This document shows positions 10,349 through 63,752 of a stretch of 64,000 bases of DNA, piece by piece. Source of the DNA: Trypanosoma brucei. Its lineage: Eukaryota. The position numbers and the translations under genes were made by a program. The notes below the pieces were generated by a model. It was given only the letters and a program-made list of their open reading frames with translations, was not told the DNA's origin and did not search any database. The DNA lies in the NCBI GenBank assembly GCA_000002445.1, contig CP000070.1:672001-736000 (forward strand). Direction: 5' to 3'. Within the stretch, counting starts at the first letter, position 1. Each line of letters starts with the position of its first letter.

Positions 10349-12063
10349 TGCCTCAGACTTTCTTCCCACTTCCTTTAAACACAGTCTATTGCCTTTGCGC
10401 TACACCAGTCTTAGTTAGGTATGTGCAATGATATCGTAGCCCCCAGTGCGTATCTGGTTTTGCAGTTGAGGGGTCGTTCTCGCTTAGTTGTATTGTTCGC
10501 TTGTTAATTGGTCACTTATCACTTTCTAACATTGATAAATGGAACCCCAATGGTGAAGCAGTGTGGTACCAGTAAACAAACAACAGAAAAGAGTTGAAAG
10601 AAAAGAGGTAACGGAAATTAAAGGGGGAAAAACAGAAACATAGAAGGAGACCCCCAAAAAGGGAAGCAGCAAATAACTGCAGCAAACGGACAGGCAGGTG
10701 CTAGACAGGCAAGCACCTCCCTCCTCTGGAGACGGTTCAACATGGATCACTTACACACATTTTTCCTCTTCGACTTTATCACGCTCAATTCGTTTTGTGC
10801 TTTTTCCAGGGGTATAAAGGAAAGGAAAACACAAGAAGTGCAGTGTCATCTGAAATTGTCAATATGAAATGAAATCAAAACAACAAAACAAAAAAGAAAG
10901 GTAAAGTAAAAGGCAAAGTAAGAAAAAAGAAAAAAGAAAGAAAAGTGAAGAGAGAGAGAGAAAACGGAACCTTTTTCTTTTTCATTCGGCACTACTCGTA
11001 ATTCCTCTTTACATTTTTTCTCCCATGTGGTTCTTTGTTTTCCTCTCTGTTGTCATTATTACCGCCGTCCACCGCGTGTATGAGTGCGTTTCTCGTTGTC
11101 ACCCTTTTTTTTTTCTCTCCTATGCCCTCTCAACTTCACCTTTACTTTATTCATTCACATAAATCATTCTTCCATTGAGTCATCGCCACTTCCCTCATTA
11201 TTAACGTGCATCAATTGCTCATTCCCATCCTCCTTGATTGAAGCGTGATAAGCAGGGAAAAGAAGAGACATGGTAGTTTTTTTATGACGGCATTAACAAC
11301 AACGGCGGTGGACAGGGGTGGAGGGATAAAACGACAAAAAAGTGTCAGTTAAAAAAAAAATCCTTATTCCTAGCATGTTTTTTTTTCTCTTTTTCTTATT
11401 TTCTCTCTCCTTTCGTTTTCTTTTTCCTCAGTCATTTTACTACCGTATGTCCGAGTATATATATGTGTGTGTGTGTGTGAAGGAGTGAAGGGGTGAAGGG
11501 ATGAGGGGGTGAAGGAGTGAAGGGGCGAAGGGAACCAAGGTTTTCATTTCATTTTTTCCCCTCCCCCTTAGAAGTTTCAAAGGAAGCAAATGAAAGAAAA
11601 GAAAGGGGGGAAATGAGGGACTGCAGAGGGAGGAAAATGCATTACTATAGTCGCGTCCTCTCATTCTCTTTTCCCACAATTTCCCCCCTCCCCTCTTCCT
11701 TAAGAACTCCTTGTACTCCTCTTATCATCATTGTTAGTGCACACGTGCGTTTGCGTGTGAATATATATATATATATATATTCATTTATTTATTTATTTAT
11801 TCTTTCATTTCTTTCACACACACACACACAAGCACAAGCACAAGCACATTTATACTCATACATACACAATTTTATTATTTACCTTACCACTTCCACAACA
11901 GAAAGCCATACGTAGTGACAGACGATCTTTTCTCCTTTTTCCCTTCTCTCGCATCTCTTCCTTAGTAAACAAAACAATATTTTCTCCTAATTCCACGCGT
12001 ATGCGCATATGTTATTGTTGTTGCTCGCATTCATCTTTTATCTTTTATCTTTTATCTTTTATT

Positions 12064-12087
12064 ATATATATATATATATATATATAT
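12064..12087. repeat. (TA)12 microsatellite
   Basis: attatatatatatatatatatatatatttc seen directly. Confidence 0.8.
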
Positions 12088-15000
12088 TTCCTCATTGTAC
12101 TTTATTCAACTCTGAGGTGTTCTGCATCGTTTGTTATCCCTTTTTGCGCCCTTTCATTTATTTATTAGCTGTTTTTTTCATTTTTTTTTTCTTTTCGTTT
12201 TCCCCCTTGTTATTCCTTCCTCAGCACAACCTTAACGTTCTGTAACAATTTCGGCTAAAGAAGGGGGAAAAAAAACAGGGGGCCCTCAACCACACATTAC
12301 GGGATGATAATCAAATCAGCAAAAGTGTTAATGGAGTGTGGTGGGGGTGGTAAAAGCGCTGTAGCGGCTGAGAAACGGAAGTTATGAAAACAACCAATAA
12401 AAAAAGGGGGAAAAGGAAGATAGCCGTAGAGAACGGGCTGCTTCAACTGTTTTACATTTCCTTCAAAAATATGTCATCCATCCTCTGCCTCAGCATTTTA
12501 AAAAAAAAAAACGATATCATTACATATTTTTTTTTAAATACCTTTCGTTGCCTTGCATTTGCATTAGTGCCGTCCACTCAATTTATTTTCCTTTTTCCTT
12601 CCGGTGCGCCTTTGTTTTCATCTCCTTTAAGTTTTTTTTCTTTTCCTTTGGTTCCTTCAGATTCAACCCTTTATTTTTATTTTTATTCCTATTTTCTTTC
12701 CCCTCCACGGTGGCGCAAAAGATATATCATTAATTAAATTTATTTATTTACTTATTTTCGTCTTCCCTTTGCATCAGCATAAAAATATATTTAGTCAGCA
12801 CAAACAAAAGTGGTAGGAACATATCAAATTAAACGAAACAAAAGAAGGAGAAGGGGAAACCACACACAAACACACACAAAAATACGCAACAAAACAAAAC
12901 ATAATAAAACATAATAAAACAAAAGCAAAATTCCTCAAAAACCGCATAAACAAAAATAACAACAAGAATAAGTGATATTGCATGTATTTCCCCTTTTGTG
13001 TTTATTTCTCTCTTCTTGTTTTTGTTTCCTTTACTTTTTTCCCTGCATTTACTCCCATACACGTACACACGTATACGCATACGTATTCATGGAAATATAA
13101 TATAATATAATATATATATATATATAAACACATTCATACATTCGTGTGTGGCGATGATGATTGGTACCCATAACAATAATACTAACATAAATAGGTAAGC
13201 AAAAATAAAAAGGCGTTGCGTGTCTAACGCCGTAAGGAATATAAAAAAAAAAAGAAAGAAAGAGAATGAAAAGGGGGAAAGGGGGAAAGGGGGAAAGGAA
13301 GGGGGAAAACAAAAAAGACATTTTTTTCCCCCTCCTCCTCCCGTCCCTCCCTCTTTTCAAGAAGGAATACATTTATAAACACACGGAAGGTAAACAAAAC
13401 AAAGAAGAGGGAAAAAGAAAAATAGCATCAATAAAGTAATTAGATGAGAAGGTGTTCGGAGGTTGTTGTTTTTTTCTTGTTAAAGGGAGAAATAACAAAA
13501 ATAGTTAAAATAGTTAAAATGATTAAAATAATAAAGATAATAAAGATAATAAAAATAACAACTGAAATATAAATTAAAACAATTCATAATAACAATAATG
13601 GTAATAAAATCACCACATTCATACTCATATTCATGACAGTTAACTTTCCCTTCCGTTTTCTTATTCATTCTTTTTTTTTTCAATTATCTCATTCCTTTTC
13701 CAGTCCTTTTTGTTCATACTCTCCCTTCCGTCGCTCATGTAACAAACTACTGACAATAATAACAATAATAATGATAATAATAACCTCCAAAAAGAAAAAA
13801 AACAACTCATAATAATGAAAAAAATGATAACAATTCATACAACGAATTAAATATTTCAAGTGATAAATCGAGAATGCTACAAAATATATAAATAAAGTCC
13901 CCATCGTAGAAAAAAAAACGAAAAAGAGGGGGTGAAAGCACACATTGGGATATAGAATAATGTAACAATTACAATCGTAACAAAAATAAAGATAATAATA
14001 ACAATAACAATAACAACAAAAATAATAAAATAACCGGTAAAAAAAAAAACACACACACACACATAAAATAAAGATAAAAAAATGAATAACAATTCCGAAA
14101 TACTTCAAAAGTTCTTCTTGTTCCCGTTTTTCTTTTTTTTTCTTGACAAACACCGCTTACCTTCACCTTTACCGCAACGAAAACATCAACTAAAATAAAA
14201 ATAAACTAAAAACTAAAAAACGCACCTTCATATAAATTTATCCATACCAGATGTACATTAACCATAACACAAATAAAAATAAAAAGCAAAACTAAGAGAG
14301 TGAGTTAGCAAGTAAATAAAACAATAAAAACAAAAATAATGATAATAACAATAAATTTAAGTGAAGTTGAGGGGAGAACGAAAGCACAAATAAAAAACAA
14401 AAACGAAGAAGCAAAAGGAAAAAAGGTAAAAAGAAAAATAAAAGGAAGGTAAGAGGAGAAGCGTGAAGGAAAGGAGAAAAGGGAAAAGGAAAAGGGGGGT
14501 GCAAAAACGGCGAAAATGCACCTCTTTTTATTTTATTTTTCCCCCCCCCCTTAAAAAACAGCTTAAAATAAAACTATCACCGCAATGACAGTATGTTGTG
14601 TTTTTGTTTTTGTTTCGTTTTGTTTTTTCCCCCTCCTTTCTTTTTTTTTGTATTTTTATCACTTTTTTTTTTTGGTCTTCCCTGATCCTTTTCAAAGCTC
14701 TAAGACATTTACCGGAAGGAAGATGATGCAAAGCAGTAAAATAAAATAAGAGATGACTCCAAATGAAAATAACACCAAGCAAACAAAAAACAAAACAAAA
14801 GGGTAAACAAGAGGAGAGAGCATTCTGATTGGGAAGGTGATCATAAAAACGAAACACAAAAAAATATATACGAGAGGTGGAAATAAATAAAACTAAACAA
14901 AAAAAAAAGCAAAAGTAAAAATAAAATAACTTTCATTTTGGGGATGGGGGGAAGTGCATTATAACAAAAATAGAAAATAAAAAAAGAAAAAAAATATTTT

Positions 15001-15887
15001 CAATAATAATAATGAGAGAAAGAGAAGAGAAGAAAAGAAAAGAAAAGAAAAGAGAGAGAGGAGAAAAAAAAACCTTCAGTCCCTCCCCTCTTCATCTTCT
15101 TTCCTTCTCCCAATTGTCTCCTCTTGATAAATCCCATTTTATAACCTCTCACCACCCTTTCCTTTTCTCTCACCCTCTCATTTATTTGTTTCCCTTTTAT
15201 TATTTTGTTTTGTCTCTTGTCTTATCACTGTTATTATCATTATTATTATTATTTATTTTTGGCTCTGTGCCGCCCCTATCCCTTTTTCATTTCAAAGAAA
15301 AATGTTATAATTAATGACGTAAGGTAATATGAACATGTAAGCTAAAAGAAAAAAAATCCGCCTCACAAACGGTTACACTGCTTCTTGCTTTTTTTCTTTT
15401 TTTTTTCTTATCTCGCCTTCCTTCATTACCACGAACAATAAAATAGATTTCAGTCCATTTTCCTTTAATTTTTTCCTGTCACGCTTAGGGCGCCAAAGGT
15501 GCATTTTCTTTCTTTCACTGTTCTGTCCCTCCCTTTTTCTTTCCTTTTTTTATTTGCTCAGAACGCAGTCTGTGTTACTCCTTTTCCTTCAGCACATGTA
15601 TCGAATTTTCCACTTGATCCGTTACATTCTGTTTCACTTCGTTTCCTCACCTTACTTCTCTTTTCCTCCTTTCTTCTTCGCTCCCTTTCTTTTTTTTAAA
15701 AAAAAGGGTTATTTCACCCTTCTCCGCGTTAGTTAAACTCTGTTACGCTACTGTTTATCGCACAGTTCCAGTAATTATCTTCACATTTTCCCTTGTTTTC
15801 CTCTGCGATGTAGCTCCGCACGCTAAATCATAATACAAGCTCCCTACTGCTTGCGTGTGCGCGTACACATACACATACAAATACAAA

Positions 15888-17105
15888 TTAATTCCTGCCC
15901 CTCCCTTCCCCTTTTTCAATACCACGATCGGTACCATTGGTTCCATAAGGGTTGTAATGCCAGCGCTCCCGACCACCTTTACCGTTTCGAGTCACCACCA
16001 CAATGTTTGGTGTCATGCCGCAACCCTGCTCAGCCAAGCAATCACCAGATGTGCTGGGATCGACGTCGAGCGATAAGTTGTCCGAAGGAAAGAACGTACT
16101 CGAGACCTGGCGCATGTGAATGTCACTTACCTGCCGTGAAAGCGAAAAAGGGATATGCGCCTGTCCACAGTCCACAACGGAATGAGCTTCGGTGCAGGAG
16201 CTGGGATCGCAGCATCTCACAACTGCGGGTTGAGTAGTAACGGAGGCATCTCCAAGTGTCACGCTGCGATTGGCCCCAAACAGCGAACCTGTTGGGCTTC
16301 CGGGACACGTCCAGCCACCCGAGACGGGAGTCGGTGCATCGCAGGCAGCCGCTGCTGCAGGTGGAGGTGGCATAGAGGTACCGGAGGCAGTCACGACAAA
16401 ACAACCGCCGGAAGGTGAGGAGGAAGGAGGTTTCTTCCATGAACGCGGGCGCTGACCCAGTGTGAGGCCCCGATCACACCTCGCCACTTCCTTGCAGATG
16501 TGGAGGTAATTGCACTCCTCCGCGTAGCGGCAGCGATCCTGCACGTGTAGGCGGCAGAGCGTAATATCACCAGCCTCCAGCACAAGGCACGATGGGGGAG
16601 TGCCGAATGCACGACTTTCCCACTGAGCCCCATCTTGTCCCTCCGCTTGGGGTGTGGAATGAAAAAGAGCGTCCAGCAACCGCGAAATGGGAGTGGTGTA
16701 ACTGAAACGGGCGAGTGGAATGTAGCCGCCTCCGTAGGTCGCATCCGGGACGTGAACCACAACGCGCGACATCCATGATCGGTTATCCAGGGCATTGACG
16801 TAATCACGGTCCCCATGCAGCGCACAGCATATGGGTAGATAGTCCACTTGACTTCGAAGCGCAGCCACAACATTCAGCGCAGCATGCACCTGATGGCACT
16901 GTGTACCCTGCCGGCAGCGCCCATCCAGGAACAGCAAGCAAAGGCTCGGGATTGTCGTGCGTTGGTGCGCCCGGGTGGGGTACACGCAACTGAGTGGGAT
17001 CCGTAATTTGCGCGTGGCGGGATCCACAACGACCATGCACTCAACACCTTTTTCAAAACACATGATATCCCTCCTGGTTTCGAGTGGCGAGGCTACGAGC
17101 TGCAT
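15888..17105 (-). CDS. CCCH zinc-finger protein, paralog A (405 aa from the first ATG; ZC3H20/ZC3H21-like)
   Basis: Track ORF starts on GTG; the first ATG is at 17103-17105 ([20 protein letters not shown]...). Two canonical C-x7-C-x5-C-x3-H fingers: [21 protein letters not shown] and [19 protein letters not shown]. The C-terminus is Pro/Ser/Ala-rich. Confidence 0.75.
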
Positions 17106-20100
17106 AATTGTACCTTCGGTTGTATCTAAGGTCACCTTCACAGTCTTATTCGTTGCTCTTTGCACCTTTTTGGTGCTGGTTGGTGCTTATTGCTGTTTCG
17201 GTCTTTCTCAGGACAACCTACAGTCGGTGGTTCAACCCTATGCTATCCGACGAACTTATGTATTCTTTTTCTTTAGCTTGATTATTTTGGTTGTTCTCTG
17301 CTGTTGGGCTCTTTACTTTTGTAAATTCAAGCGCGTACGCGGCGGAAGCTGTGATTAATCACAACGAGATGGAGATAACGACAATAATAGTGATAATAAC
17401 AAGAGGACGAGAGAAGAAGTGAAATGGGAGCAAGAAGTGTGGCAGTTAAAAGGGGGGAAAGGGGGTAACCAAGACAAATAGAGCTCCAGCGGGTTAGGAA
17501 TCCAGCACCCAACACCTACACAACCCATCGCACAGCTCATTTCACGGATGATGAGGAAAGAAGAAGAAGAGGGAAACAGATAATGAAGAGAAAGTGGGGA
17601 CAAGGCGGCACAAATAACAATGATAAAAAGGCAAAGAGTAAAACATTTGAAACGCCACAAATACATAAATATATGTATAAAGAAATACACATAGTTTAAT
17701 AATAATAATATAAGGAGGTCATAGTACCTAGTCTATCACCACTTCACCAGCAACAGCCACCCACGCGAAATGTTTCAGGAAAACTGTGCACAAAGATCCG
17801 AACACACACATGCATCTGAATGAAGCTGCACACAGTAATATATATATACTTATTTTTTTTCGAAAAAAAAAGGGGAAACGCGCACCTATAAGTATTTGTG
17901 GTGGCGTTTGTGTGTGTTTACTTACCTTTTACCATCGTAACCTCCTCAGAATTCTATTACTCACCTTTCTGTTACCCCACGGGCACCGCGCAACCACTTG
18001 GTGATTATTCTCTCGTAGTCAGTAAGTCATCATTACTTCCGTTACCGCGCAAGAGCGTAAGAAAAAAAGAAAAGGACTTTCCCTCACACTTCCATTCCTT
18101 TCCTTTCCTTTTGGTTCCCTAACATTTCTTCCTTTCTTAATCTCTATTTCGCTTACGCAGATACATAATGCCTTAAATTTCCTTCAAAGCAACCCGATGC
18201 TACAACCAAGTCAAAGTAAGATGTAAAAGAACCAAAAGGCGGTAGACGGGGGACGGGAACTAAGATAGAGAAAGGAAATGAAAATGAAAATGAAAACGGG
18301 AATGGGAATGGGAAGAAAAAAACAAAAAGGGCAGCACAAACAAATAAATAAAAATAAAAAAGATAAAAATAAAGAAACAACCGGTTAAAGAGAGTCGGGT
18401 TTTACCTCCTTTCCTCATTTCTTTTTCAATCGACACGTATGCAAATGCAAGAATGTGCGAATGAAATTGGCCCAAAAGTGCTATCAGAAGCAATATGAAA
18501 ACGAAAAACGGTCCCCGAGTAGAGATAAAACGGAATTACGAACAGGTGGGGAAAAGAGTGCAGAAAAAAAAAATGAACGCGTGTTCATGTGTGTGGATTG
18601 TCCAAAAAAAAAATGACGAAAACACTTCGGCTGGGTTGAGGGAAACAAAAAAGATATATATATATATATATATATAACAATTATAACTATAGTAACTATA
18701 ATGATAGATCATTAATACCTCCGACTGCTGCTGTAATAAAAATAATAACAATAATTATATTGAAATGAAGGCAGCAACGAAGTTGGGCAGGAAGAAAGGG
18801 AAATGGAAGAATGAATTTGAGAGAGAGGAAAAGAAAAGAGAAAGGCAAGCGCAATAAAAGAGACCTGGTAAATATATACATACATTCATATATATATATA
18901 TATTAAAAAATAAAAAAATAACCGGTGCATTGTCGAAACAAATGCCCATTCACTAGTTAAAAAAAATTTAAAACAGCAACAACACGATAGGTACAAAATA
19001 AAACTTAAGAAAAAGATGAAAAAGGAAGAAGGTGTAATGGAGGAAGTCGTCGTAATGACTGAGTGAATGAATAACCGAGGTTTAGAAAAAAAAACATGAA
19101 TGAAACAAACACAACGCACCGACGACTCCCCTAACCGCACATACAAAAAAAACTACAAAGGTAAAGAAGAAGAAAAAAGCTGAAGTTGTACCTAATGAGG
19201 AAATTTTAAAAAATCAGTTAAAACATAATAACTGATAATATTTATATGGAAATCGAAATCCCCCACAAATGGTACATTAATATTACAGGGAAAGGGAATG
19301 GTTTTCAACAAAAAAAAAAAGAAAAAGAAACGCCTCTCTACCGTATTAAACAAGGAACGGGATAACATCACATATGCACACATGTAAAGGCATCTCACCA
19401 CTTTATTGTCACAGCCGACAAACTTATATCCATCTCACTCATTCACTCAGTCAGTCAGTCAGTCAGTTAGCCAATCATTCCTTTATTTACTCAACAGCTT
19501 CAAACAAACACGCGTAAAAACACGCGCCCACACATAGGAAATAAAGAAGAAAAAAAAGAAATTCAGTTCGTCCGGAAAAAAAAAACAGGAACACACACCG
19601 TGATCCTGTTACTTCCCATTTTTTCCCCGACTCCAATAGATATTTATTTTCTTTAATATCTCTTGATATCATTTATTTTTTATATTTAATTATCAAAAGG
19701 GTAAAAGAAAAACAAGGAGGAGAAACCATGCGCTACCTCACCCCTCTCCCTTTCCTTCAGTGCCTGGTGGCACTGTTTGACGTTATACAAAAAATATGTT
19801 TTTCACCTCTCTTTATTTTTTGTCCCGCCCCTTCCCAGCTCGCCATACGGGGTACAATTCGATCAATTCAGAAGCACACAGATGGGGAGAAAAAGATGAG
19901 CAGGTGCAAACAATAATAAATTAAACAAATAAAACCGCGCCCTCAAGTCCACAGATACCGAACGAGAAGATTAAAAGGCAAAGACACGCGTATGCTTGTC
20001 AGCCAATTCTTCTTCTTCACTTTTGCAGTAGTTTCGTTCTTATATTAAGATGCCTCACCTGAAGGGGAAACAGATAAACGACAGGATACAACACAATGGG

Positions 20101-21073
20101 GAAGAGCAAAATAAAATAAATAGAAATGCAGCACAGTTAAGCATCACACAACTCTAATAATAATAATAATAATAACCATTATACTGCTGTTTCTTCCCAC
20201 CTGTTTCTCCCTCACTCATTCCTATCAAATGTTAAGTTACCTACACATTCCTTTCTTACACATAGAAACAAATGACACATGCCCTTTCACACGTCAGTAA
20301 GTTTCTCCTTTTCTTATATATTTCTCTTCCATACCCTTTTATGTACAGTGAAACGCTTAAATACTTTCTTCTTTCCTTCACTTCTCTTTGCATCTCATTC
20401 ATATGTTTCGCTGCTTCTCTCCTCTCTTCTTTTCTTCGGTTCACTCCGATATCAACGAAGACATCTACCAAGTACAACCCCACAGGACCCGAAATGAGAG
20501 AAAGCACAAATGAAGCGATAGAAGAGGCAGAGTAGGAAGCACAAAAGGTGAGTTCACACCCGCTTCACAAAAATGAAACATTTCTTTTTTTCTTATTTCG
20601 TATTATTCTCTACGACAGTATCCTTTACCCAAAAATTAAAAAAATACATATATATATATATTATTGCATAATAACAATAATATAATCCAAACATAAAAAG
20701 GGAGATTTACGCTCCTTCAACACCCCTCCCCTCCCCTCCTCACCCCTTACCATCATCCAGTAATGTCAGCATATGTACAAATACAACAGTTGTATTAACA
20801 AAAAAAAAGATGACAGCGATGCTAACATAAGTTATTTGCCGCAAGAAGGGAGTAACGAACGCATATAGCCGAGTGACAACAAAAATAACAAAAAAAAAAT
20901 AGAAACAACGTGTTCCCACAAAAAAAAATGAGAAGGAAATATACAAGAGCTATAAGAGAAACATGGAAAAATTATAATAACAAAATAAAATAAAACGGAG
21001 AAAGATGCACTACAAAAGTTATAACCAAATAATAACGAAAGTGGTGGTATGGAAGGGAACTTCTTCACAATGC

Positions 21074-22459
21074 TCAATCGCTGATTCCTCCCGTTGGAGT
21101 CACACCGTATGGATTGTGTTGCCAGGCGCGTGCAGAGACAGACGCTGAAGACACCGACTCGACCGGCTGTGGAACTGATGACGAAGTCCCATTGGGGCAA
21201 AGGTGAGTGGAGGAGCACTCATCTCCGGGACAGAAATAACAATTAGGTCCGTCACTACCGTAACCGTTCCGGCTGCCGTACGCGTAACCGTTGCAACCGG
21301 AATAATTGTTGTTGTCGGCGTAATGGCAGTCGCTGCACGACCCAACGAATGCGCATGGTGCGCACCCAGACTCAGGTGAGCTCCAGCGATCCCAGCAGCC
21401 TCCGGCCCCATACATTGCTGCATCCTCCCTTGCTGCTGCTGTTGTTGTTGTTGAGGTTGTTGTGGAAGAATAGCAACGCGGAACTCCGGGGTGCCCTTGG
21501 ACAAATCGGGGGGCGAGGGACGGCAATGGTGCAGCATCCATGCGACTTTCCATGTAGGCACCGGTGGGGTACCGCCCAGAAACCCAAGAGCAGTCGCTGT
21601 TAATATCCGACACGGCGTTATAACTCATTGAGCCCTCGTACGATCGAAGGGGGAATGGCGTCTGGTATTCAACCGTGGGGTATGAAAGGGGCCTTCCACG
21701 TACACGTTGTTGACGGGAGACCGAAACGAATACAGAACCCTTCTTTGCTCCTCGTGGGCCGGGTTCTCCCCCATCACGCGCCTGTGACGTGAGCGAGTAA
21801 TCACCGCTGCCATTATTGACATCGACAACAATTTCTTTGCAGATATGAAGGAAGATGCACTCCTCCGCGTATCGGCAGCGGTCCAGCGTGTGAAGGCCAC
21901 ATATTTTAAAGTCACATGCGTTTAAGACCATCCGCTTTGGATGTCCCCCACCATCAACTGCCGCAACACTGACGCCACTCTCGAGGCGAGCGTTGACTTC
22001 CCTCAATATCCTGGAAATGGGAGTGGTGTAACTGAAACGGGCGAGTGGAATGTAGCCGCCTCCGTAGGTCGCATCCGGGACGTGAACCACAACGCGCGAC
22101 ATCCATGATCGGTTATCCAGGGCATTGACGTAATCACGGTCCCCATGCAGCGCACAGCATATGGGTAGATAGTCCACTTGACTTCGAAGCGCAGCCACAA
22201 CGTCCAGCGCAGCATGCACCTGATGGCACTGTGTACCCTGCCGGCAGCGTCCATTTAAAAACAACTGGCAAAGGCTCGGGATTGTCGTGCGTTGTTGCGC
22301 CTGGGTGGGGTACACGCAACTGAGTGGGATCAGTAATTTGCGGGTGGCGGGATCCACAACCGTCAAGCACAAAACGCCCTTTTCGTCGAGAGCAAGGTGC
22401 CTTTCACCACCAGCTGGTGCGTTTACCGAAAAGTAGCGATGAGATTGTGGATGGCTCAT
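21074..22459 (-). CDS. CCCH zinc-finger protein, paralog B (461 aa from the first ATG; ZC3H20/ZC3H21-like)
   Basis: Track ORF starts on GTG; the first ATG is at 22457-22459 ([10 protein letters not shown]...). Fingers [21 protein letters not shown] and [19 protein letters not shown]. Poly-Q/Thr-rich C-terminal tail. The central roughly 115 aa are near-identical to paralog A. Confidence 0.75.
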
Positions 22460-25400
22460 AATGGTGTCCCGGTACTGTAATGACCTCTCTTCCTGGCGTT
22501 CAGTTGAAACTCCTCTATGTTCTTTTTTCGATGGCTTTAGTACTCCTCGCGCGGTCTCTCCCACTCACTGATATATATATATATATATTGCCTTGCTGAG
22601 TGCGCTTTGCTTCCTTCAAATTATGAGCTCCAACTATACGTGCGCAAACCTTGTCTTCCGGACTATTTTTTATACGAATAAGTAGCCAGACAACGTAACT
22701 AACTCTGTCTTTGTTCTTACCTTTGTTATGATGACTTGTGAACTTCCGTTAGTTGTTCCATTAGTTGAGGGCAGGGGAGATGGAAAGTATTTGAAATAAT
22801 CTCGAGGCAACCAAGTGCAAAGTAATTTGTGACGACGACTCGAACAAGTGGAACTACACCGCTGCTCGCAGTGCTCTCGATTACACACCTATTTTCGCAT
22901 TGTCGTTTTGTCGTTGTTTCAAGCCCCTTTCCCCTCTTTATATAAATATATAAATAAATAAATATATATATATATATATCTGTCCTTTGTTTTGCTCTCC
23001 TTGAAGGATCCATTAGCTGAGTCGCTAGATGACATGCACAGACTTCAAATAAACAAGTAAAAATAAATAATGGGGAATCGGATTTGTTTTTTACAGCCCG
23101 GCGGGAAAAAAAAGCCAGGAGCCAAAGGGGCAAAAAAAAAAAAAAGACGAACAAACAACGCGAGCGGAGGGCGATAAGTGCAGAATTGGCATGCATGTGT
23201 TTGCGCATATATGAAACAAAAGAAGAGAGAAGTTGATTAGATGAAGAACGGCAATACGCAATGGCCACAAAAAGTTTAATATACCAAATATGCTGGCTTC
23301 ATGCATTCAATATATTCTTCACCATTCTACCGCTTCTCTTCGCGCAGTACATATAATTCCGTCGCATGCGTACACTTCCACACACGATGTTATTGATCTC
23401 GATATTACAAGTTAACCACAAAAATAAGGGGAAGGGAAAATAAAAGCACGCGTATGCAAACACATACACATATATGTATATATCGAAAAGTTATTTTCAA
23501 AAAAATCATCAAGGGACATTTGCTTCAGTGGTCTCACATACAGTCCCTTTGTTTTTTCCCTTTTCCGCAGTGATTCTGTTTCTCGCTTCGTCCCAACTCG
23601 TGTTATTATTTTTTTTATCTGTGTTTTTATTTGGTCGTCTCCTTTCACCTTCTATTTGGGCAAGCTGCTTTTATTGGTACATTTTTTAAATTTTTTTGAT
23701 TGTGGCTGCGGTGCCTTTTCTGTTTATTATTACTCTCTTTCCCTCACTCTTCACTCCCCTCTTCCTCATCCTCCTTAACGATTTATTTAATGCTCGCTGA
23801 TTGTGTTGAAGACTTAAAGATAATATAAAACAATAAAATATAATAAATAAAAAAATATCAAGTGAATGCTAAGGGGAAATGGTAATTTTTTTAAATTTTT
23901 TGCCTCTCCCTTCGGACTACACCACATCTGTAAAAATGCCGTAGTCCGCACCTTTCAAAGCCCAAAAACAAAAAACATATAATATATAAAAAGGAGAAAA
24001 TAGTGTCGGATTTTCCGAAAAAATAGTGCGAGAAAACACAAGTGATTGGTGGTCCCCTTGTCTTCCTTTCTGTTTCAACCATACGGATGATTTTCTCTCA
24101 CGTCGTTACTTCTGGTGTTTTTTTTTCATTTCTTTTTTTTTTTGTAAAGGAAAAAATAATGTGTGGGACTTTTCCATATTTTTTTCCATCCTTGTGAGTT
24201 TATCTTCACTTCATTACCTTCAAATCACTCTACTGGTTTTTTCCTTCAATCATTAAATAAAAACAAAAAAGAATTAAGGGGAGCCGAGGACGCAAAAACT
24301 TCACAAACGCATACAGTAATTTCTGAAAGAAATGTGCGCTCAGAGTGTGATACAAATGGCACGTTCCACACTGTCCTACATTCTCAAATGTAAAAAATAA
24401 AATAAAATAAAACGCGACGATGAGTTGAAGAAATGGTATGAATGAAAGGCAACGAAAAGAAAATGGAATTGAATAGAACGGGCGAGAGTGGAGCAAAACA
24501 AAAAAGAAAGTGTTCAAAAAGTAAGGACGCATATTTTATTATTTTTTTCCTCCCTCCTCCATCCCTCCGCAATATTCATCCCTCTTTTTACAGCACAATC
24601 CACTGTTGCGTACTTTCCGCATATAAAAGTCACGCATTTCCATCTTATGCTCCCTACTCCTCCTCATTATTTCATTGTGAACTTTCCATTTCACCTATCC
24701 TGTATGTTTCTCTCCACCACTTTTACTCACGCTGCAGGCCCGCACCCTCACACGCACACACATGTTCCTCTCCTCTTTTTTTTTTGTCTTATATTATGTT
24801 CGCTATTCATTGTTACACCGTTGTTTACTATTTGAAATAATAATAATAATAATGGTTAAAATGTACATATGTACGTATGTACATATTTTAAATATATTCA
24901 TTTATACTTATTTTTAATTCACATACGTGCTTGCATGTTTGATCTTCAGCGTTGGAGCCATATTTTTCCAATCCGCATTATCATCCGTTTCTTCCACTGA
25001 TGTTGTTTCCTTTTCTCCTCCTTTTTCGCTTTCCCTTTCGTTTCCTTTTTTTTTTCTTCTGTTACGCTCTGTTCTGTTCTGTACTTTGTTTGGCTGTTCT
25101 GCTTCACTCACCATCATGAAACCAAAGTTGCTCCACTTATTTCGTTTCACCTCTGCAAAATGTAAATAAATAAATAAATTTTCTTATTTGAGTTCAGTCA
25201 TACCAGATGAATTACTGATTTAAAACGAATTTGGCCAACAAATGCCTGCCCGTCTCCCACATACTCACGCACATATACGAACATACGCAGTTGCCTTAGT
25301 ATATATTTTGTCCACACACTCTTCTTCTTTCTTCTTTTTTTTGTTTTGTTTTTGCCATTTGCTTTACTTTTTTTTTTCAAAAAAAAACTATTTGCTCTCT

Positions 25401-25608
25401 TCATTGCATACACCCACCTATACACAATACATATATATATATATTAGTTTGCACCTGTATGTGGATTTAATTCGACACAATATAATTTATTACTTTCACT
25501 CTTCTCCCTGTCTGTACTCGTCACCAAATCGCTCGCTTCGCCGGATGCCGCTGTTGCCATTGAAATTAATATTTTATATCCTTTTCTTTCTTGTCTTATC
25601 CCCCCGTC

Positions 25609-25633
25609 CACACACACACACACACACACACAC
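25609..25633. repeat. (CA)12 microsatellite
   Basis: tccacacacacacacacacacacacacacc seen directly. Similar (CA)/(TG) tracts occur at about 7729, 11465 and 11813. Confidence 0.8.
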
Positions 25634-28600
25634 CACCCTGCCACAAAATGCATCCCACACACAAAAAAAAAACAAAAAAAAAAAGAAAACACGAAAAAAG
25701 AAAAAGGGAGAGAGCGACCCCGATAATTAAAGTTAAAATCATTTTTAAAAAAAAAGGAGTAAGACAGAAACACAAACATAAACATAATCCTGCATTATGC
25801 GCCTAAGGCCGTATTCGTCCATGATATGGAATATTATGGAGGAGGGAAGGAAAAACAAAGCAAAACAACATTCACAACAGACCAAAGCAGTTACGCACAG
25901 TAGCATGGAACCAGCGGGGAAAAGGAGGGTTTTAAAAAAACAAAAAAAAAGAAAAAGAAATACAAATGGAAAAATGAAAGAAAACAGGAAGAAACACAAA
26001 AAAAAAAAGGAACAAGAACAAGAACAGGGGAAAGGAGGGAAAGGATGGAAAGGAGGTGACTTATTCGGTCAATGACCGGGAAAAAAATAAAAAATAAGAA
26101 AAGCAAAAGAGAAAAATTAAAGAATAGCAAACAAAACAAAGAATGGAATGGAATGAGAAACGGGTAATGAGATTGGAGAGACACGAATATATTCGGTCAC
26201 TTGACACCAACACCCGTAGGGGGTAAGGGGAATTTGATGGAAATTTGATGACAAACAAACGTACGAATGACTCGCGGTCAAAATAAATAAAAACGTTAAA
26301 TGAAAAGAGGGTTAATAGACAAGAAAATAATTATAATCATAATTGTGCTAACAATAACACACCACCGATTTCATCACACCGGCCATTTCTCCCGTGCTCA
26401 CACTCATGGCTTTCAACGGCGTGGAAAAAAAAAAAGAAAATTTTAAAGTAGAAATAAAAGGAAAGGAAAATAAATGCACAGATTGCATCCACCATTTGAG
26501 AAGACATCACGTTGACTCTTTATCTCCTTGTTATTATCATCATTTCATTGTTCTTAATAATAATAATAATAAAAGGTAAAATATGAAGAAAAAAAGTGGA
26601 AAGTGGTCCTTTCGAGAGTTAATTATCTTACATCTAAGTGTTCAGACAGCATAAGTTAACCACGAATTCGATGACGAGAAAGAAAAAATAAATAATGAAA
26701 TGAAGTAGTTATTGCGTTCTTTCATAAATTTATGTATGCATATTCGATCTGACTTCATCTTCCTTAAATCTCTTTCTTCTTCTTTTTTCTTCCACCCGTA
26801 CGCTCCCGTTCACTCCGCAGGCCCCTCGACCTTTCCACTGGTGTTATCGTTGCGGTTATTTTATTATCGTTATCTTTTTGTTCCGCTCAAATGGCGAAAA
26901 GGTGGTGCGGCAAAGAACAGTCAAAGATACAAATATTTATATTGTGTTAATTTTCTTTTTGAAATATATGTATATATAATAAGGTGTGTAGAAATCGTTT
27001 GTCTTTCCTTACGTTCGCATCACGGTTTTATTCTACATGGACATCTGTCGAGGAAGCGAGATACTAACGTGGTGGGAAGGAAGAATAAAACAAGAAAAGG
27101 TGGAACAAACGCAGAACCAAACAAAAAAACAAAGAGAAAACTATCAACCAAAGAAAAATAAAGGGGGAAAGAAAAATCATTATCACGAAAAAGCTGCGCG
27201 ATCCGCGGCCCGATCCCTTTTCTTTAATTCTCCTCCCGCTCCTCCCGTTACGCCCACGGAAGGGTAAAATAAAAAATAACAAAACGCTGAGTGGCTGAGG
27301 GTGTCAAATGGGCGGGCTCATAATAATAATAATAAATAATATATATTTATATTTGATATTTGTAGAAGGGGCTTGGAAATTAATAAAAGGTTGGGAATGG
27401 AGATGGAAAAAGAGGAGAAGGAGAAGGAAAAATAAATGGTAACAAACAAGTCGAGGAAAAGAAGTAAAATAAAAGAGTTTGAAAACAAAATAAATAGGGG
27501 GAACGTGACAGAGAGGAGAACGGGAAGATTAAATAAAATAATATCCATACGCTCTCTGTTTCACCTTTCCCCCATGCACACACACACACATGCATATATA
27601 TCACTTTCTTTGCTTGCAAAATATATATCAATCCCACTGGGCAGGCCTCACAAACAACCACGTGGTAAATTTTTCTAGCATCTGTTTGGATAGCGGTTAT
27701 TATTTTTATTATTATTTGTGTGTGTGTGTGCATGTGTGTGTAAAACCCCCTCCTTCACCACCGATAATTCACCTCGAGTCTCTCCATCATCCCACTTCCA
27801 TTCCCCTCAGCCTCCTCCCACCCCCATGGCCTGGACGGCTGTTATGAAACATACCGATGATAGGAGTCCTCATCATATCATTTTCGAAGTGGGAGGAATG
27901 AGGAAATGAAAGGGAGGATGGAGGCGGCCAAAAATAAATTCAAAAAATAAACAAATAATCAATATTTATGGAGGAAGAATGCTTAAATGGAAAATAAAAC
28001 CAAACAAAAAATATACAAGTATGTAGTCAAGTAAATCATTGCTTAAAGGGGGTGACCAAAATTTGTAAACTGCACCCGTGGCAGCGAAGAGAGAAAAAAA
28101 GAGAGTAAGCTGCTTCTGGGTGTCCCTTCCTCCAAATTTTTAAAAGTTCGATCGCTCAATAGCTTTTACTTCGGTTTAAATAGCCTATGTTTCTCATTTT
28201 CCTCTTTTTTTTTTGTCGTACTTTCCTTTTGCCTTCTTTTGTTTCCGATTTTTTCTTTCAGCTTCTAAAAATTTAACCTTTGTTCAAGCGACGGAGTGCG
28301 CCTTTGAGCCTTCCGTTGCCATTTACAGCCACCAAAACCCTTCATTTCGCCGCTCATTTCTCATTCCCTTCTCCCTCACTAATCCAGCACAATTCCCACG
28401 CAAGCATCGCTGCATTTTATGTGGTGCAGCTTCTGATGAGCAAAAACAAGCCAGCAGAGAGGGGGAAACTTCATTATTCAGAACGGGCAATGGAGCCTCA
28501 ACCGTTATATATATGCGGAAACCATTAAGGGCTAAAGCTCAACGAAAGGACAACTCAATTAGCTATATTCCATTCACGGCCGCCCCCCCCCCCCCACAGG

Positions 28601-28737
28601 GTCAGTCGCGTTCACAAGCAAAAGAAATACAAAGGAAAAGGAAAACGAGAAGAGAAAAAGAAAGTACCGACAGCCCTGCGACGCAACCATCCCTATTCCA
28701 ATCGCCATTGTCTTGTTACTTTTTTTCTTTTCTTACC

Positions 28738-30864
28738 TCAAAAGGGTACGTGTAGGGGAACTTGTGAAGGCATATTCCCCTTGCCAGAGCCGTACATTGG
28801 CAAGCACAAGTTGCGAAAGCCGTCTTCCCGACCTGAGACGAAACAGAAGGGGCCGTACGTTTGCCCATCCGTTCCCATCTGCTGCTGCGCGCTAGCAACC
28901 GGTAGTCCCGTTGCAGAAATCATAGGATACATCACAGTTGTGGAAGGCACCAGAACTGTCGACGGCCAAACGGTATGTCCATTTTGCATTGGTTGTGGGC
29001 AAGGGGCTACTGATGACTGCTTCTGTGGAAAATACATTGCACAGCACGGCACAGACGGGGTGCTCACTTCCCTACCACTGATTGGGGTTACGCTCTGTCG
29101 ATCGTTTAAGCTGAACTGTGACGGTGATGGCACGCTTTTCTCCTCGCTTGGGTCGGTGACGGGGAAAGCCACACCGTGCAGCCTCATTGTTGTTGCGAGG
29201 CCGTGTCTGGTTTCGCCGAGAGGGCCATCTTCATAAACAGGTGGCCTCTGCTGAACCAACACATTCCGGCAGGTGGTACCGTCTGAAGTGATCTGTCCAA
29301 CCGTTGGCGACGCACGCGCCGAGAAGGTATTGGTGGAGGCAGAACCGTGTGAAGACAACTTCCCAGAATGAGTTCCATCCCTTTCGCTACTTACTATACT
29401 CCTTCCCTTATGCAAGTGGCTCATCGTGGGTGACTTTGAAGGGTGAAACGCCACAGTCGGATAGTTCTGCTGCTTTCTCCTATTCTGCTGCTGTGACAGT
29501 GCCCCCAAGAGGTCACCCGAAACAACTCTGTTTCCTGTGCTTTCAGTCTTTGTCGGAACCTTACACTGATCCTCACTGCCAGGGTCCTCCAAGTCTAGCT
29601 TTATAGTAGCGACCAGCTCCTTCAACACGTCTCGACAGATGTGCACATACCAACAGTCCGCTCCGTACCGGCAACCTCCCGGTTTACCGTGTAAGCGGCA
29701 GACAGCGCATGTGTTCAGTGAGCGGGACGCATTGTTCTTCAACACAAAGCGTTCCAACCCGTTGGTATATGCCACTCGACTCAGAGGTACCGCCGCGCCC
29801 TTTATTAAGATGGTACGATGGGCATTCGCTTCAGCGTCCCATTTGTTGGCGTTACACTCGCCATGAAAGGCACAACAGTAGGGAAGGCTTTCGTTTATTT
29901 GACGGAGTCGCTGCACCACCTGGGGGTCTATGTGCATTTGATAGCAGCTCGCTCCACGGAGGCAACGACCAGATTGGAAGAGAAGGCACAGACTCGGGAA
30001 GGAAACGCGGCCGCCAAGTGCTTTTGTAGGAATGATGGAGCTGAGCGGCACGTGTAGCTTGGACCGCTGCGGATCAACCACTGGAATTCTCTGCTCTTCG
30101 GTGGGCTGTTGGGGGCCTACTGTTCTACAGTCATTCAATCCATCAGGCGCAACTTTCACCTTGTCGATGGCGGATTCCATCGCTTCTGTAATTGGCGAAA
30201 ACAAGCTCGGCGTAATCTGAGACATTCCAACCTTAACGGCGTCGTGGATCAAGGAACTCTGCACATCTTTCCCCTCCACCTCCCAGATGTTCGGGTTACA
30301 CGTAACCGACCGCGTTTGCATAATGGTAAAGGGATCTTCGCTCTCTGCAGAAAAATCTTTAAAAGGTGATTCAGGCCGCGAAAAAACATGGGCAAGACAG
30401 TCATCTTGAAACTCCATATTATTCTTCTCCTGGTTCGGTAACGCCGAGTTCACCAAAGAAATGGGGAGGTCAATCGTACTGTTCACGTCACCACTTGGAA
30501 AGACAGAGGAAGTTAGACTTCCATCCACTCCCTCCCTGTTTCCAATACTCCTGGCGGCGGGCACTTCAGCTGCGTTATCTGATATCTCCCTCGTCGACAC
30601 CGTTGCGTCACCCCAATCCGTAAGATGGATGAAGGGTGCAGACACACTCACTGCAACACTCCCACCTCGAGGCAATTGACTTGCGCAAACCCCTTTGGAA
30701 GCAGTGCGCCACGCACACCCACCGTCAATGGCATCCAGCTCAGAGGGCACCCCCATACACTCTCCGCCCTGATATTGTTGGGTTGTGCTACTGGATGGTA
30801 TGCCAGCTGCGCGCGAGACATACGTGACGCTACCGGGAATGTTCGATTGTTCGGGAAGGAACAT
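28738..30864 (-). CDS. CCCH zinc-finger protein, larger paralog C (708 aa; ZC3H22-like)
   Basis: ATG confirmed at 30862-30864. Fingers SLCLLFQSGRCLRGASCYQMH (C-x7-C-x5-C-x3-H) and CRLHGKPGGCRYGADCWYVH (C-x8-C-x5-C-x3-H). Conserved context with A and B (KLHVPLSSIIPTKA..., YCCAFHGE versus ICCALHGD). Confidence 0.7.
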   Translation of the reverse strand: MFLPEQSNIPGSVTYVSRAAGIPSSSTTQQYQGGECMGVPSELDAIDGGCAWRTASKGVCASQLPRGGSVAVSVSAPFIHLTDWGDATVSTREISDNAAEVPAARSIGNREGVDGSLTSSVFPSGDVNSTIDLPISLVNSALPNQEKNNMEFQDDCLAHVFSRPESPFKDFSAESEDPFTIMQTRSVTCNPNIWEVEGKDVQSSLIHDAVKVGMSQITPSLFSPITEAMESAIDKVKVAPDGLNDCRTVGPQQPTEEQRIPVVDPQRSKLHVPLSSIIPTKALGGRVSFPSLCLLFQSGRCLRGASCYQMHIDPQVVQRLRQINESLPYCCAFHGECNANKWDAEANAHRTILIKGAAVPLSRVAYTNGLERFVLKNNASRSLNTCAVCRLHGKPGGCRYGADCWYVHICRDVLKELVATIKLDLEDPGSEDQCKVPTKTESTGNRVVSGDLLGALSQQQNRRKQQNYPTVAFHPSKSPTMSHLHKGRSIVSSERDGTHSGKLSSHGSASTNTFSARASPTVGQITSDGTTCRNVLVQQRPPVYEDGPLGETRHGLATTMRLHGVAFPVTDPSEEKSVPSPSQFSLNDRQSVTPISGREVSTPSVPCCAMYFPQKQSSVAPCPQPMQNGHTVWPSTVLVPSTTVMYPMISATGLPVASAQQQMGTDGQTYGPFCFVSGREDGFRNLCLPMYGSGKGNMPSQVPLHVPF

Positions 30865-31787: not shown

Positions 31788-32150
31788 TCACCGTACCAGC
31801 GTATTGTGATTAAACTGTCGTGAGCACCACTCCACCTCCTCCTCAGCAGCACGGAGGTCCTCGACATCCGCAGTCTCACTTAGGTTCTTGTCATCGTTTA
31901 ATAGTCTGTTCGAGGATGCACCGGAAGCTGCACAGCCATCGCTAATATCTTCAAGACCGTACGTCTCCCTGTACCACTCGTCATAGCGTTCTGCATTAGG
32001 AGTATACATATCCTGCACTTCCTTGTTGGTCTCGAAGCACCTGCGCCACGCCGTACGCTGAGCTGTGGGGGCTGGCTGCGGAAGTTGTGCCACGTAACCC
32101 TGAGTTAATGGTTTGCTAAACAGGAAAAGAAAGAATGTCCTTCGGTGCAT
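31788..32150 (-). CDS. Candidate small acidic protein (120 aa) in the long spacer between the ZC3H22-like and b5-reductase genes
   Basis: ATG confirmed at 32148-32150. Coding-strand orientation. Acidic C-terminal half (DEWYRETYGLEDISDG...EDLRAAEEEVEW). No homology recognised. It could equally be a chance ORF in UTR sequence. Confidence 0.2.
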   Translation of the reverse strand: MHRRTFFLFLFSKPLTQGYVAQLPQPAPTAQRTAWRRCFETNKEVQDMYTPNAERYDEWYRETYGLEDISDGCAASGASSNRLLNDDKNLSETADVEDLRAAEEEVEWCSRQFNHNTLVR

Positions 32151-33593: not shown

Positions 33594-34457
33594 TCAAAAC
33601 TTGTAAACCATAGCCTCTGGGTAGCCCAATTCCTTCAGATACCCACTAAGAGGACCTTGTGAACGCCCTTGCTTCTCTCCGCTGATTGTTTTCATAAAAC
33701 CTGGTGGACCACTAACAAGCAATATCGCCTTGTCAACGCAGTTAGGACTGGGCATCGTCTCTTCGATAACTTTTTTCGTTATATGACCCCTGTAACCTCT
33801 CCAATACCAAGGTGGTGACGTCAGCGAATGAAACACAAACAGCTTACCAGGGTTATCGTTGGCCAACTGACCGAAGCGATCCGCCAACAACATTTCCGCC
33901 TTCGAGTGGTTGGAACAAACCAATGAGAACTTTGTCGTATTAGAGGGCCTTCCGAGGAAGTTACGGGCAATTTGATACATTGGAGTAACACCAGTACCCC
34001 CAGCCAGCATACCAATGTGCTCATACTGACCAGACTTAATATCCATTGTCTTCCATGGGCCCTGAACTTCAATCGAGTCACCGACCTTCATGTTGTGAAG
34101 GTGCGATCCCATCCTCGAGTTGGGATATGACTTCACCAGTAACTCAAAACTTCCCTTGTCGGATTCCAGGTTCAAAGGGGTGTATGGCCGCACAACTTCC
34201 TTCCCCTTGTCGTCCACATACCGCAGAGTTATACATGATGGCGCTTCGAAATTAAGCTCCATATCCTTTTCAGGAAGGGCGAAAGTGAAAATCTTCGTGT
34301 CATGTGATTCATCCTGTACACAAACCAGCTTATACGAGTGATATACTGACTGGGAAAAGGGACTTTTTGCTGCAGCCTTGGCCTCAACCGCTCGATCAAC
34401 TTTAAAATATCCAGAGGCAACCATCCCAGTAACAGCAGCAGCTGCAAATACCTTCAT
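33594..34457 (-). CDS. NADH-cytochrome b5 reductase (287 aa)
   Basis: ATG confirmed. FAD-binding RPYTPLN, NADH-binding MLAGGTGVTPMYQ, C-terminal LLVSGPPGFM. Overall layout matches the ferredoxin-NADP reductase / b5R family. Confidence 0.85.
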   Translation of the reverse strand: MKVFAAAAVTGMVASGYFKVDRAVEAKAAAKSPFSQSVYHSYKLVCVQDESHDTKIFTFALPEKDMELNFEAPSCITLRYVDDKGKEVVRPYTPLNLESDKGSFELLVKSYPNSRMGSHLHNMKVGDSIEVQGPWKTMDIKSGQYEHIGMLAGGTGVTPMYQIARNFLGRPSNTTKFSLVCSNHSKAEMLLADRFGQLANDNPGKLFVFHSLTSPPWYWRGYRGHITKKVIEETMPSPNCVDKAILLVSGPPGFMKTISGEKQGRSQGPLSGYLKELGYPEAMVYKF

Positions 34458-35777: not shown

Positions 35778-35997
35778 GGCACCTTGCTTAAGGAAAAGTG
35801 AGGAGATATGGGGAAAGTGAAACAAAATGAGGTGGACCAAAAAACACAAAGCGCTGCAGTGTAACAAAGCAAATTGACAATGAATTCACAGCCCTCTGCT
35901 ACCCGCACAAAATTCAACGGCATTTTCACCACCAATTTTTCTTCGAGTTACGTCGTCCTTGTATGCTAAAACAAAAAAGCTGGCTCAATCGGTTACC

Positions 35998-56822: not shown

Positions 56823-57386
<564 letters not shown>

Positions 57387-57720: not shown

Positions 57721-58296
<576 letters not shown>

Positions 58297-58629: not shown

Positions 58630-59205
<576 letters not shown>

Positions 59206-59539: not shown

Positions 59540-60115
<576 letters not shown>

Positions 60116-60448: not shown

Positions 60449-61024
<576 letters not shown>

Positions 61025-61358: not shown

Positions 61359-61934
<576 letters not shown>

Positions 61935-62267: not shown

Positions 62268-62843
<576 letters not shown>

Positions 62844-63176: not shown

Positions 63177-63752
<576 letters not shown>

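Follow-up and report, generated by a model that had tools for sequence, protein, structure and literature searches.

Evidence for recurrent gene conversion in the first-finger module of ZC3H20 and ZC3H21 at the Trypanosoma brucei ZC3H22/ZC3H21/ZC3H20 locus

Three paralogous genes for CCCH zinc-finger proteins, ZC3H22, ZC3H21 and ZC3H20, lie in a row on the minus strand of a 64,000-nt stretch of Trypanosoma brucei DNA (contig CP000070.1, positions 672,001-736,000), which we call the window and to which the positions below refer unless another sequence is named. We regard it as almost certain that this region is the chromosome-7 ZC3H22/ZC3H21/ZC3H20 locus of T. brucei TREU927, that its spacers are mostly long 3′-UTRs (3′-untranslated regions), and that gene conversion has affected the N-terminal module of ZC3H20 and ZC3H21. 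Sequence comparison among trypanosomes suggests, with good though lesser confidence, that ZC3H20 and ZC3H21 arose by one duplication at or before the base of Trypanosoma, and that recurrent interlocus conversion has kept the first-finger module in lock-step, its boundaries being shared by Salivaria and the T. cruzi clade; a third zinc site is also possible. The cluster, its fingers, the long 3′-UTRs and the counts of motifs for the repressor RBP10 have all been published previously and represent the rediscovery of a well-characterised locus: the proteins, their order, the finger architecture, the MKT1 motifs, the spacers and the RBP10 motif counts are the same as those of the published T. brucei locus. 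Studies of ZC3H20/21/22 were reportedly made by Ling et al. in 2011, by Liu, Kamanyi Marucha and Clayton in 2020, and by Erben et al. in 2021. The sole point absent from the searchable literature is the conserved gene-conversion tract; no statement about gene conversion of ZC3H20 was found in the literature searched, which included the 2010 CCCH survey, the 2011 ZC3H20 paper and the preprint version of Liu et al.

The ZC3H20/ZC3H21 tract and its history

The three genes, with open reading frames (ORFs) counted from ATG starts, and the two copies of the tract, delimited by blastn, a repeat search and synonymous divergence, are as follows.

15888-17105, minus strand: ZC3H20 coding sequence, 405 amino acids, Tb927.7.2660; ORF with exact match to XP_845889/Q57XK8
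21074-22459, minus strand: ZC3H21 coding sequence, 461 amino acids, Tb927.7.2670; ORF with exact match to XP_845890/Q57Y77
28738-30864, minus strand: ZC3H22 coding sequence, 708 amino acids, Tb927.7.2680; ORF with exact match to XP_845891/Q57Y78
16684-17054, minus strand: conversion tract, ZC3H20 copy, coding-sequence nucleotides 52-422, codons 18-141, with a perfect 188-nt run at 16684-16871
22014-22384, minus strand: conversion tract, ZC3H21 copy, coding-sequence nucleotides 76-446, codons 26-149, with the perfect run at 22014-22201

In T. brucei, the two copies align by blastn without gaps at 94.1% identity over 371 nt, and the repeat search of the tract gave 96% over 300 nt. The last 188 nt are perfectly identical, and the 23 positions at which the TREU927 copies differ all lie in the 5′ half. 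The tract extends over about 124 codons and covers finger 1; just 3′ of it, the similarity between ZC3H20 and ZC3H21 falls to about 30%. Finger 2 is conserved as protein but only 76-82% identical as DNA. The T. vivax paralogues share a block with these boundaries at 98.1% identity, and the T. cruzi paralogues at 97.8%, giving a range of 94-98% overall when T. b. gambiense is included. Between species, the tract is only about 67% identical over most of its length.

Synonymous sites, measured by the Nei-Gojobori method as synonymous divergence (dS) or as the proportion of synonymous differences (pS), carry the same contrast. Within the tract, dS between the paralogues is 0.13 in T. brucei TREU927, 0.17 in T. 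b. gambiense, 0.03 in T. vivax and 0.08 in T. cruzi, whereas pS in finger 2 reaches 0.74 between the T. brucei paralogues and 0.48 between the T. vivax paralogues. T. brucei and T. vivax orthologues differ in the tract with a pS of 0.78-0.81. At tract site 204, both TREU927 copies have A and both gambiense copies have C, which is consistent with conversion after the split of the two lineages.

Segment-wise neighbour-joining trees give two different histories for the two parts of the genes. In the tract, the paralogues pair by species, with bootstrap values of 100 for both T. brucei and T. vivax and 95.5 for T. rangeli. In the post-tract segment, the sequences form a ZC3H20-type clade (bootstrap 90) and a ZC3H21-type grouping (bootstrap 40), both of which follow the species tree. 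The two types also differ in their motifs, VLEAGDIPICRLH, LPLGRRSR and KWRHDPY being characteristic of the 20-type, and SVF.S.SRQQ.LRG and HWQHNPY of the 21-type. The difference between the tract and post-tract trees, the contrast between dS and pS, and the conserved 21→20 gene order argue for one old duplication and, after it, repeated partial gene conversion. The N-terminal module was homogenised in this way, while finger 2 and the C-terminal tails diverged freely.

This reading differs from that of a 2019 preprint (10.1101/646547, section 5), in which the genes were inferred from a full-length tree to have duplicated independently in T. brucei and in T. cruzi/T. rangeli. Recent lineage-specific duplication of this kind, or very strong purifying selection, could in principle produce near-identical N-terminal regions with no conversion at all: the full-length protein tree does group the paralogues by species, and the tract is the most conserved part of the protein, with many residues invariant in 36 homologues. 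We nevertheless consider an origin without conversion very improbable. Independent duplications account neither for the division of the post-tract halves into two groups that span the species and have distinct motifs, nor for the gene order 21→20 shared by T. brucei, T. vivax, T. cruzi and T. theileri. Purifying selection that acts on the protein has no means of removing synonymous differences, and the tract dS of 0.03-0.13 stands against a pS of 0.74 in finger 2 and about 0.8 between species. Constraint at the nucleotide level, for example by an embedded RNA element, is contradicted by the low tract identity between species, and T. theileri, at 76.7% nucleotide identity, illustrates the state of the tract when recent conversion is absent. 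Collapse or cross-polishing of paralogous reads during assembly, which the short length of the tract (about 370 nt) and a gap and misjoin near the locus in the T. b. gambiense assembly might bring to mind, has a negligible probability, because the same tract with the same boundaries recurs across the independently made assemblies of TREU927, DAL972, T. vivax (where it lies on an 840-kb contig) and T. cruzi (two assemblies with identical copies of both genes, not counted as independent), because the proteins of T. rangeli, T. conorhini and T. c. marinkellei show it as well, and because the 23 differences in TREU927 mean that the copies are not fully identical.

Three points weigh against one old duplication with recurrent conversion. 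The 21-type clade in the post-tract tree has the weak bootstrap support of 40 given above. T. theileri lacks recent conversion, the identity of its tract being about the same as that of its own finger 2; conversion in this species would either have lapsed or be much older. Finally, what the conversion means for function we may only infer. The T. theileri genes of ZC3H21-type and ZC3H20-type are located at positions 4811-6412 and 10001-11374 of locus L005, respectively.

If one old duplication with concerted evolution replaces independent duplications as the history of the family, full-length trees of ZC3H20/21 proteins are misleading. In practical terms, RNA-interference fragments or short reads placed over the 188-nt perfect run cannot separate ZC3H20 from ZC3H21. 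The pattern also suggests a division of labour in which the finger-1 module is shared and finger 2 and the tail give paralogue specificity; if true, there might be selection for an identical finger-1 surface in regulators acting at successive life-cycle stages. Interlocus gene conversion in mammalian gene pairs (PMC2720389) likewise leaves tracts that are closer between paralogues than between orthologues, with homogenised synonymous sites and sharp boundaries. In contrast to these pairs, the ZC3H20/21 tract stays within a single structural module of an RNA-binding regulator, and its boundaries recur in T. brucei and T. cruzi despite 4-6 kb of unrelated spacer.

Locus identity and protein architecture

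An exact-sequence look-up showed the three products to be identical, residue for residue, to reference proteins of T. brucei brucei TREU927, the record XP_845889/Q57XK8 bearing the title 'RNA-binding protein ZC3H20'. The preliminary description of this DNA, made from the sequence alone, had reported three paralogous minus-strand genes of 405, 461 and 708 amino acids and had proposed a fit to the ZC3H20/ZC3H21/ZC3H22 cluster on T. brucei chromosome 7; the ORFs and their coordinates agree, the exact protein matches bear out the proposed identity, and the products are indeed kinetoplastid CCCH proteins. Near-identical copies were retrieved from T. b. gambiense and T. equiperdum by sequence look-up, and the T. 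b. gambiense locus aligns with the window at 97.9% identity over 19 kb, spacers included. The genes follow one another in the order 22→21→20 on a single strand (30864→28738, 22459→21074, 17105→15888), and the GenBank accessions of the TREU927 proteins, AAZ12330-32, are consecutive. The identifiers Tb927.7.2660, Tb927.7.2670 and Tb927.7.2680 and the consecutive ZC3H22-ZC3H21-ZC3H20 arrangement are given by Liu et al. (bioRxiv 10.1101/646547), and the arrangement also in PMC8312216. The biological importance of the locus is already established, ZC3H20 being a quorum-sensing and differentiation regulator and ZC3H20/21 driving the procyclic expression programme.

In an alignment of the three products, ZC3H20 shares 49% identity with ZC3H21 and 33% with ZC3H22. 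About 80 columns are invariant across the three, clustered around two CCCH fingers and an 'LP.CCA.HG' motif, in the shared context VVDP..KL.IPLS..PT..PSLC.LF..GRC..G..C.Q.H...LP.CCA.HG...C.LH...CRY..C...HIC, in which the finger context quoted in the preliminary description is found exactly. A regular-expression search located two fingers of the claimed form C-x7/8-C-x5-C-x3-H in each protein, with spacings [7,5,3] twice in ZC3H20 and in ZC3H21, and [7,5,3] and [8,5,3] in ZC3H22. These spacings, including the C-x8 second finger of ZC3H22, are reported in 10.1101/646547 (section 5). The Cys and His residues of both ZC3H20 fingers are invariant in 36 homologues. A motif search also found the MKT1-interaction motifs.

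16884-16940, minus strand: ZC3H20 finger 1, residues 56-74, C-x7-C-x5-C-x3-H
16500-16556, minus strand: ZC3H20 finger 2, residues 184-202, C-x7-C-x5-C-x3-H
22214-22270, minus strand: ZC3H21 finger 1, residues 64-82
21845-21901, minus strand: ZC3H21 finger 2, residues 187-205
29932-29988, minus strand: ZC3H22 finger 1, residues 293-311, C-x7
29641-29700, minus strand: ZC3H22 finger 2, residues 389-408, C-x8
15945-15962, minus strand: ZC3H20 variant MKT1-interaction motif WHYNPY, residues 382-387; the variant is described in 10.1101/646547
21107-21124, minus strand: ZC3H21 MKT1-interaction motif WQHNPY, residues 446-451

The Pfam CCCH models tested (PF18345 zf_CCCH_4, PF14608 and PF18044) remained below the gathering threshold for all three proteins, the best scores, all with PF18345, being 25.1, 17.4 and 20.9 bits against the curated cutoff of 29 bits. 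Together with the presence and invariance of the CCCH residues, these scores point to proteins that are CCCH by motif but divergent from the Pfam models. The preprint (10.1101/646547) places the MKT1-binding motif near the C-termini of ZC3H20 and ZC3H21, with WHYNPY as the T. brucei ZC3H20 variant. The motif (Y/W/T)(R/T/Q)H(N/D)PY was searched in the ZC3H22 protein and none was found, in agreement with PMC8312216, where ZC3H22 is described as having no MKT1-binding motif.

In an AlphaFold2 model of ZC3H20 built with 36 homologues, the predicted local distance difference test score (pLDDT) is mostly above 90 at residues ~20-150 and ~170-215; the linker between these two modules is of lower confidence, and the remainder, including the tail, is disordered. 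The conversion tract (residues 18-141) coincides with the first confident module. Beyond the eight finger ligands, C93, C94, H97 and C204 of ZC3H20 are invariant in 36 of 36 homologues, including ZC3H22 and Leishmania proteins, and may form a previously unrecognised third zinc site that links the N-terminal module to finger 2. The codons of C93/C94/H97 lie at about 16829-16815 and that of C204 at 16496-16494.

A sequence search of the Protein Data Bank returned only a weak match, to Tristetraprolin/TIS11 (1m9o, E = 0.07), and the larger fold predicted around the fingers had no match there. Tristetraprolin/TIS11 proteins have two C-x8-C-x5-C-x3-H fingers about 18 residues apart, each with a (R/K)YKTEL lead-in. 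ZC3H20/21/22 do not belong to this family: their fingers are mostly C-x7, lie 109 (ZC3H20), 104 (ZC3H21) and 77 residues (ZC3H22) apart, and show no YKTEL lead-in in the alignment. The two groups have in common two CCCH fingers, binding to mRNA 3′-UTRs and control of mRNA stability. Unlike those of Tristetraprolin, the trypanosome fingers are embedded in a larger predicted fold, and, according to the literature, ZC3H20/21 stabilise their targets through MKT1 whereas Tristetraprolin recruits decay factors.

Spacers, long 3′-UTRs and RBP10 sites

The spacers of the cluster are the three largest gaps between minus-strand ORFs in the window, the other gaps being 130-2396 nt.

10370-15887, minus strand: spacer downstream of ZC3H20, 5518 nt; ZC3H20 3′-UTR with the processing signals and 5′-UTR of the next gene
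17106-21073, minus strand: spacer between ZC3H21 and ZC3H20, 3968 nt; ZC3H21 3′-UTR and ZC3H20 5′ region
22460-28737, minus strand: spacer between ZC3H22 and ZC3H21, 6278 nt; ZC3H22 3′-UTR and ZC3H21 5′ region

Two of the spacers have exactly the bounds first proposed for them, while the lower bound of 11007 given for the third was arbitrary, as the next ORF ends at 10369. The GC fraction is 0.33-0.37 in the spacers and 0.53-0.57 in the coding sequences, so the spacers are AT-rich, as had been claimed. Their low complexity holds in moderation: 10-27% of 64-nt windows have a DUST score above 2, the figures for coding sequence and for other intergenic DNA being 0% and 0-6%, respectively, and Tandem Repeats Finder detected just two small arrays. 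Likewise, the spacers are pyrimidine-rich locally, the sense strand having many poly-pyrimidine tracts of 20-76 nt, but not in bulk, where the pyrimidine fraction is only 0.49-0.55. A repeat search revealed no repeats common to the spacers except AT-rich low complexity with a 9-nt periodicity, and no paralogy among the three UTRs is detectable. The most repetitive spacer part is an AT-rich stretch with this periodicity (AATAATAAA-like units) at 13482-14042, downstream of ZC3H20.

Trypanosome genes have no individual promoters; each of their mRNAs is cut free through trans-splicing and polyadenylation, and mRNA levels are set post-transcriptionally. ZC3H22, ZC3H21 and ZC3H20 are transcribed in that order within one minus-strand polycistronic unit starting at a strand switch near 39-44 kb, and the 4-6 kb AT-rich spacers are mostly the 3′-UTRs of the upstream genes. 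The proposal in the preliminary description that such long spacers imply very long 3′-UTRs, and hence heavy post-transcriptional regulation of regulators, is correct and already in print: 3′-UTRs of more than 4 kb with 2, 5 and 9 RBP10 sites are given for the ZC3H20, ZC3H21 and ZC3H22 mRNAs (Clayton 2019, PMC6597758, section 5.13 'Regulating the regulators'), their length having been seen by RNA-seq and Northern blot (PMC6597758, 10.1101/646547). Its mention of developmental regulation is equally well founded, expression in procyclic and stumpy forms being documented by these publications too.

It is improbable, although less so than the alternatives to gene conversion, that the spacers mainly hold additional independent genes for small proteins or for long or small non-coding RNAs. 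The window spacers do contain ORFs of 100-180 amino acids, ORFs of 96-185 amino acids are annotated in the equivalent spacers of T. b. gambiense DAL972, there are dozens of potential trans-splice signals in the form of a poly-pyrimidine tract with an AG after it, and kinetoplastid small nucleolar RNAs (snoRNAs) and long non-coding RNAs are poorly covered by Rfam. However, no Pfam match was obtained for ten of the longest spacer ORFs, whose translations are of low complexity, and the gambiense calls are mostly antisense and also without Pfam match. Across the whole window, Rfam at gathering thresholds and ARAGORN found no Rfam family and no tRNA; sub-threshold Rfam matches in the spacers at E ≤ 0.1, to microRNA and snoRNA families, were rejected as compositional, as they fall on poly-pyrimidine/poly-purine tracts. 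By Rfam, ARAGORN and Pfam on ORFs, the spacers thus have no detectable extra genes, the TREU927 protein accessions run on without interruption, and in the published RNA-seq and Northern data the spacers form part of the 3′-UTRs of more than 4 kb. Prediction of splice and polyadenylation sites from poly-pyrimidine tracts gave dozens of tract-then-AG candidates, too many to be informative.

UA(U)6 is the motif bound by RBP10, and these mRNAs are among its targets, ZC3H21 having 5 motifs and ZC3H22 having 7 (Mugo & Clayton 2017, PMC5568443). We counted the corresponding sense-strand motif, UAUUUUUU, in each spacer and derived the expectation from 500 dinucleotide-preserving shuffles. The ZC3H20 spacer has 2 sites (starting at 14996 and 14866) against 2.2 expected, a number reached by a fraction of 0.65 of the shuffles; the ZC3H21 spacer has 5 (20901, 20646, 19796, 18920 and 18912) against 1.6 expected (fraction 0.016); and the ZC3H22 spacer has 10 (28013, 27949, 27278, 26690, 26096, 26089, 24399, 24158, 24025 and 23857) against 1.8 expected, a count that 0 of 500 shuffles reached. 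For the three spacers together, there are 17 sites against 5.7 expected, and again 0 of 500 shuffles reached 17. Counted from the ZC3H22 stop codon, the nearest seven downstream sites fall within about 4.4 kb, which may explain the published count of 7.

Several observations count against so simple an account of the spacers as 3′-UTRs laden with RBP10 sites. The ten motifs of the ZC3H22 spacer exceed the published 7 or 9, and some of them are probably outside the mature 3′-UTR. The ZC3H20 spacer is not enriched in the motif. The mRNA boundaries rest on the literature, there being many poly-pyrimidine/AG candidates within the spacers. Furthermore, T. vivax, with 0-1 sites per spacer, shows no excess of UA(U)6; the long spacers therefore predate the motif or do not depend on it.

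The arrangement recurs in other trypanosomes. In T. cruzi, the order is a cytochrome-b5-reductase-like gene, a 120-amino-acid gene, the ZC3H22 homologue, 4.8 kb, the ZC3H21-type gene, 5.7 kb and the ZC3H20-type gene. T. vivax has a 21-type gene, 3.4 kb, a 20-type gene, 5.0 kb and the orthologue of the window ORF at 8735-10369, and T. theileri has the same order with spacers of 3.6 and 6.9 kb, including assembly Ns. Spacers of 3.4-6.9 kb in these three species indicate that long spacers are ancestral in the genus, which the UA(U)6 excess is not. The divergence of T. b. gambiense DAL972 from the window beyond position 19064 of its locus sequence (L001) was rejected as biology: a 100-N assembly gap is followed by unrelated sequence. 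This segment (L001 19080-21386), 2.4 kb downstream of ZC3H20, contains a fragment of a nitroreductase-like gene and is probably a scaffolding misjoin.

The literature provides a regulatory model. In bloodstream forms, the repressor RBP10 binds the UA(U)6 motifs in the ZC3H20/21/22 3′-UTRs. With its 2 sites, ZC3H20 would be the first to escape repression, in stumpy forms, and ZC3H21 (5 sites) and ZC3H22 (about 7-10) would follow only after RBP10 has gone, in procyclic forms; during differentiation the proteins appear in an order that fits the graded number of RBP10 sites (PMC6597758). ZC3H20 and ZC3H21 then bind overlapping sets of procyclic-specific mRNAs and stabilise them by recruiting the MKT1-PBP1 complex via the C-terminal (W)xHNPY motif, and ZC3H22, without that motif, behaves differently. 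Several hundred procyclic-specific mRNAs are stabilised by ZC3H20/21 according to 10.1101/646547, and ZC3H20 is a TbDYRK substrate that a figure legend presents as implicated in slender-to-stumpy differentiation (PMC7136023). Other trypanosome regulators with multi-kb 3′-UTRs, such as RBP10 and protein kinases (Clayton 2019), likewise have AT-rich, low-complexity 3′-UTRs with multiple sites for RNA-binding proteins; ZC3H20/21/22 differ from them as three paralogues in a row with a graded number of sites for a single repressor.

Neighbourhood of the cluster

A strand switch lies at about 39200-43600, the long ORFs being all on the minus strand below it and on the plus strand above it, and near 40 kb the cumulative GC skew is at its lowest. 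This divergent strand-switch region is presumably a start region for transcription by polymerase II. Beyond it, a tandem array of histone H2A genes occupies 56830-64000 on the plus strand, with 8 copies of a 909/910-bp unit that are 98-100% identical and run off the end of the window; each unit has an ORF matching the Pfam families Histone (PF00125) and Histone_H2A_C (PF16211). The preliminary description had placed the zinc-finger cluster upstream of an H2A array. The array is present, but about 26 kb away, on the other strand and across the strand switch, and thus belongs to a divergently transcribed neighbouring unit different from that of ZC3H20/21/22.

Downstream of ZC3H20, a minus-strand ORF of 544 amino acids (8735-10369) has an N-terminal tandem repeat of 48/93/141 nt (SELKSDRKS.RE...) at 9936-10240 and no Pfam match; in T. 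vivax and T. theileri, an orthologue of this ORF comes next after the ZC3H20-type gene. On the other side, between ZC3H22 and the reductase genes described below, a minus-strand ORF of 120 amino acids without Pfam match is located at 31788-32150. It is probably a real, conserved small gene because both T. cruzi (L003 2298-2660) and T. b. gambiense (L001 322-684) have a 120-amino-acid gene called at the syntenic position. Further upstream of ZC3H22, the minus-strand ORFs at 33594-34457 and 34914-35867 are tandem paralogues with FAD_binding_6 and NAD_binding_1 domains, resembling cytochrome-b5 reductase, and T. cruzi has the same neighbour.

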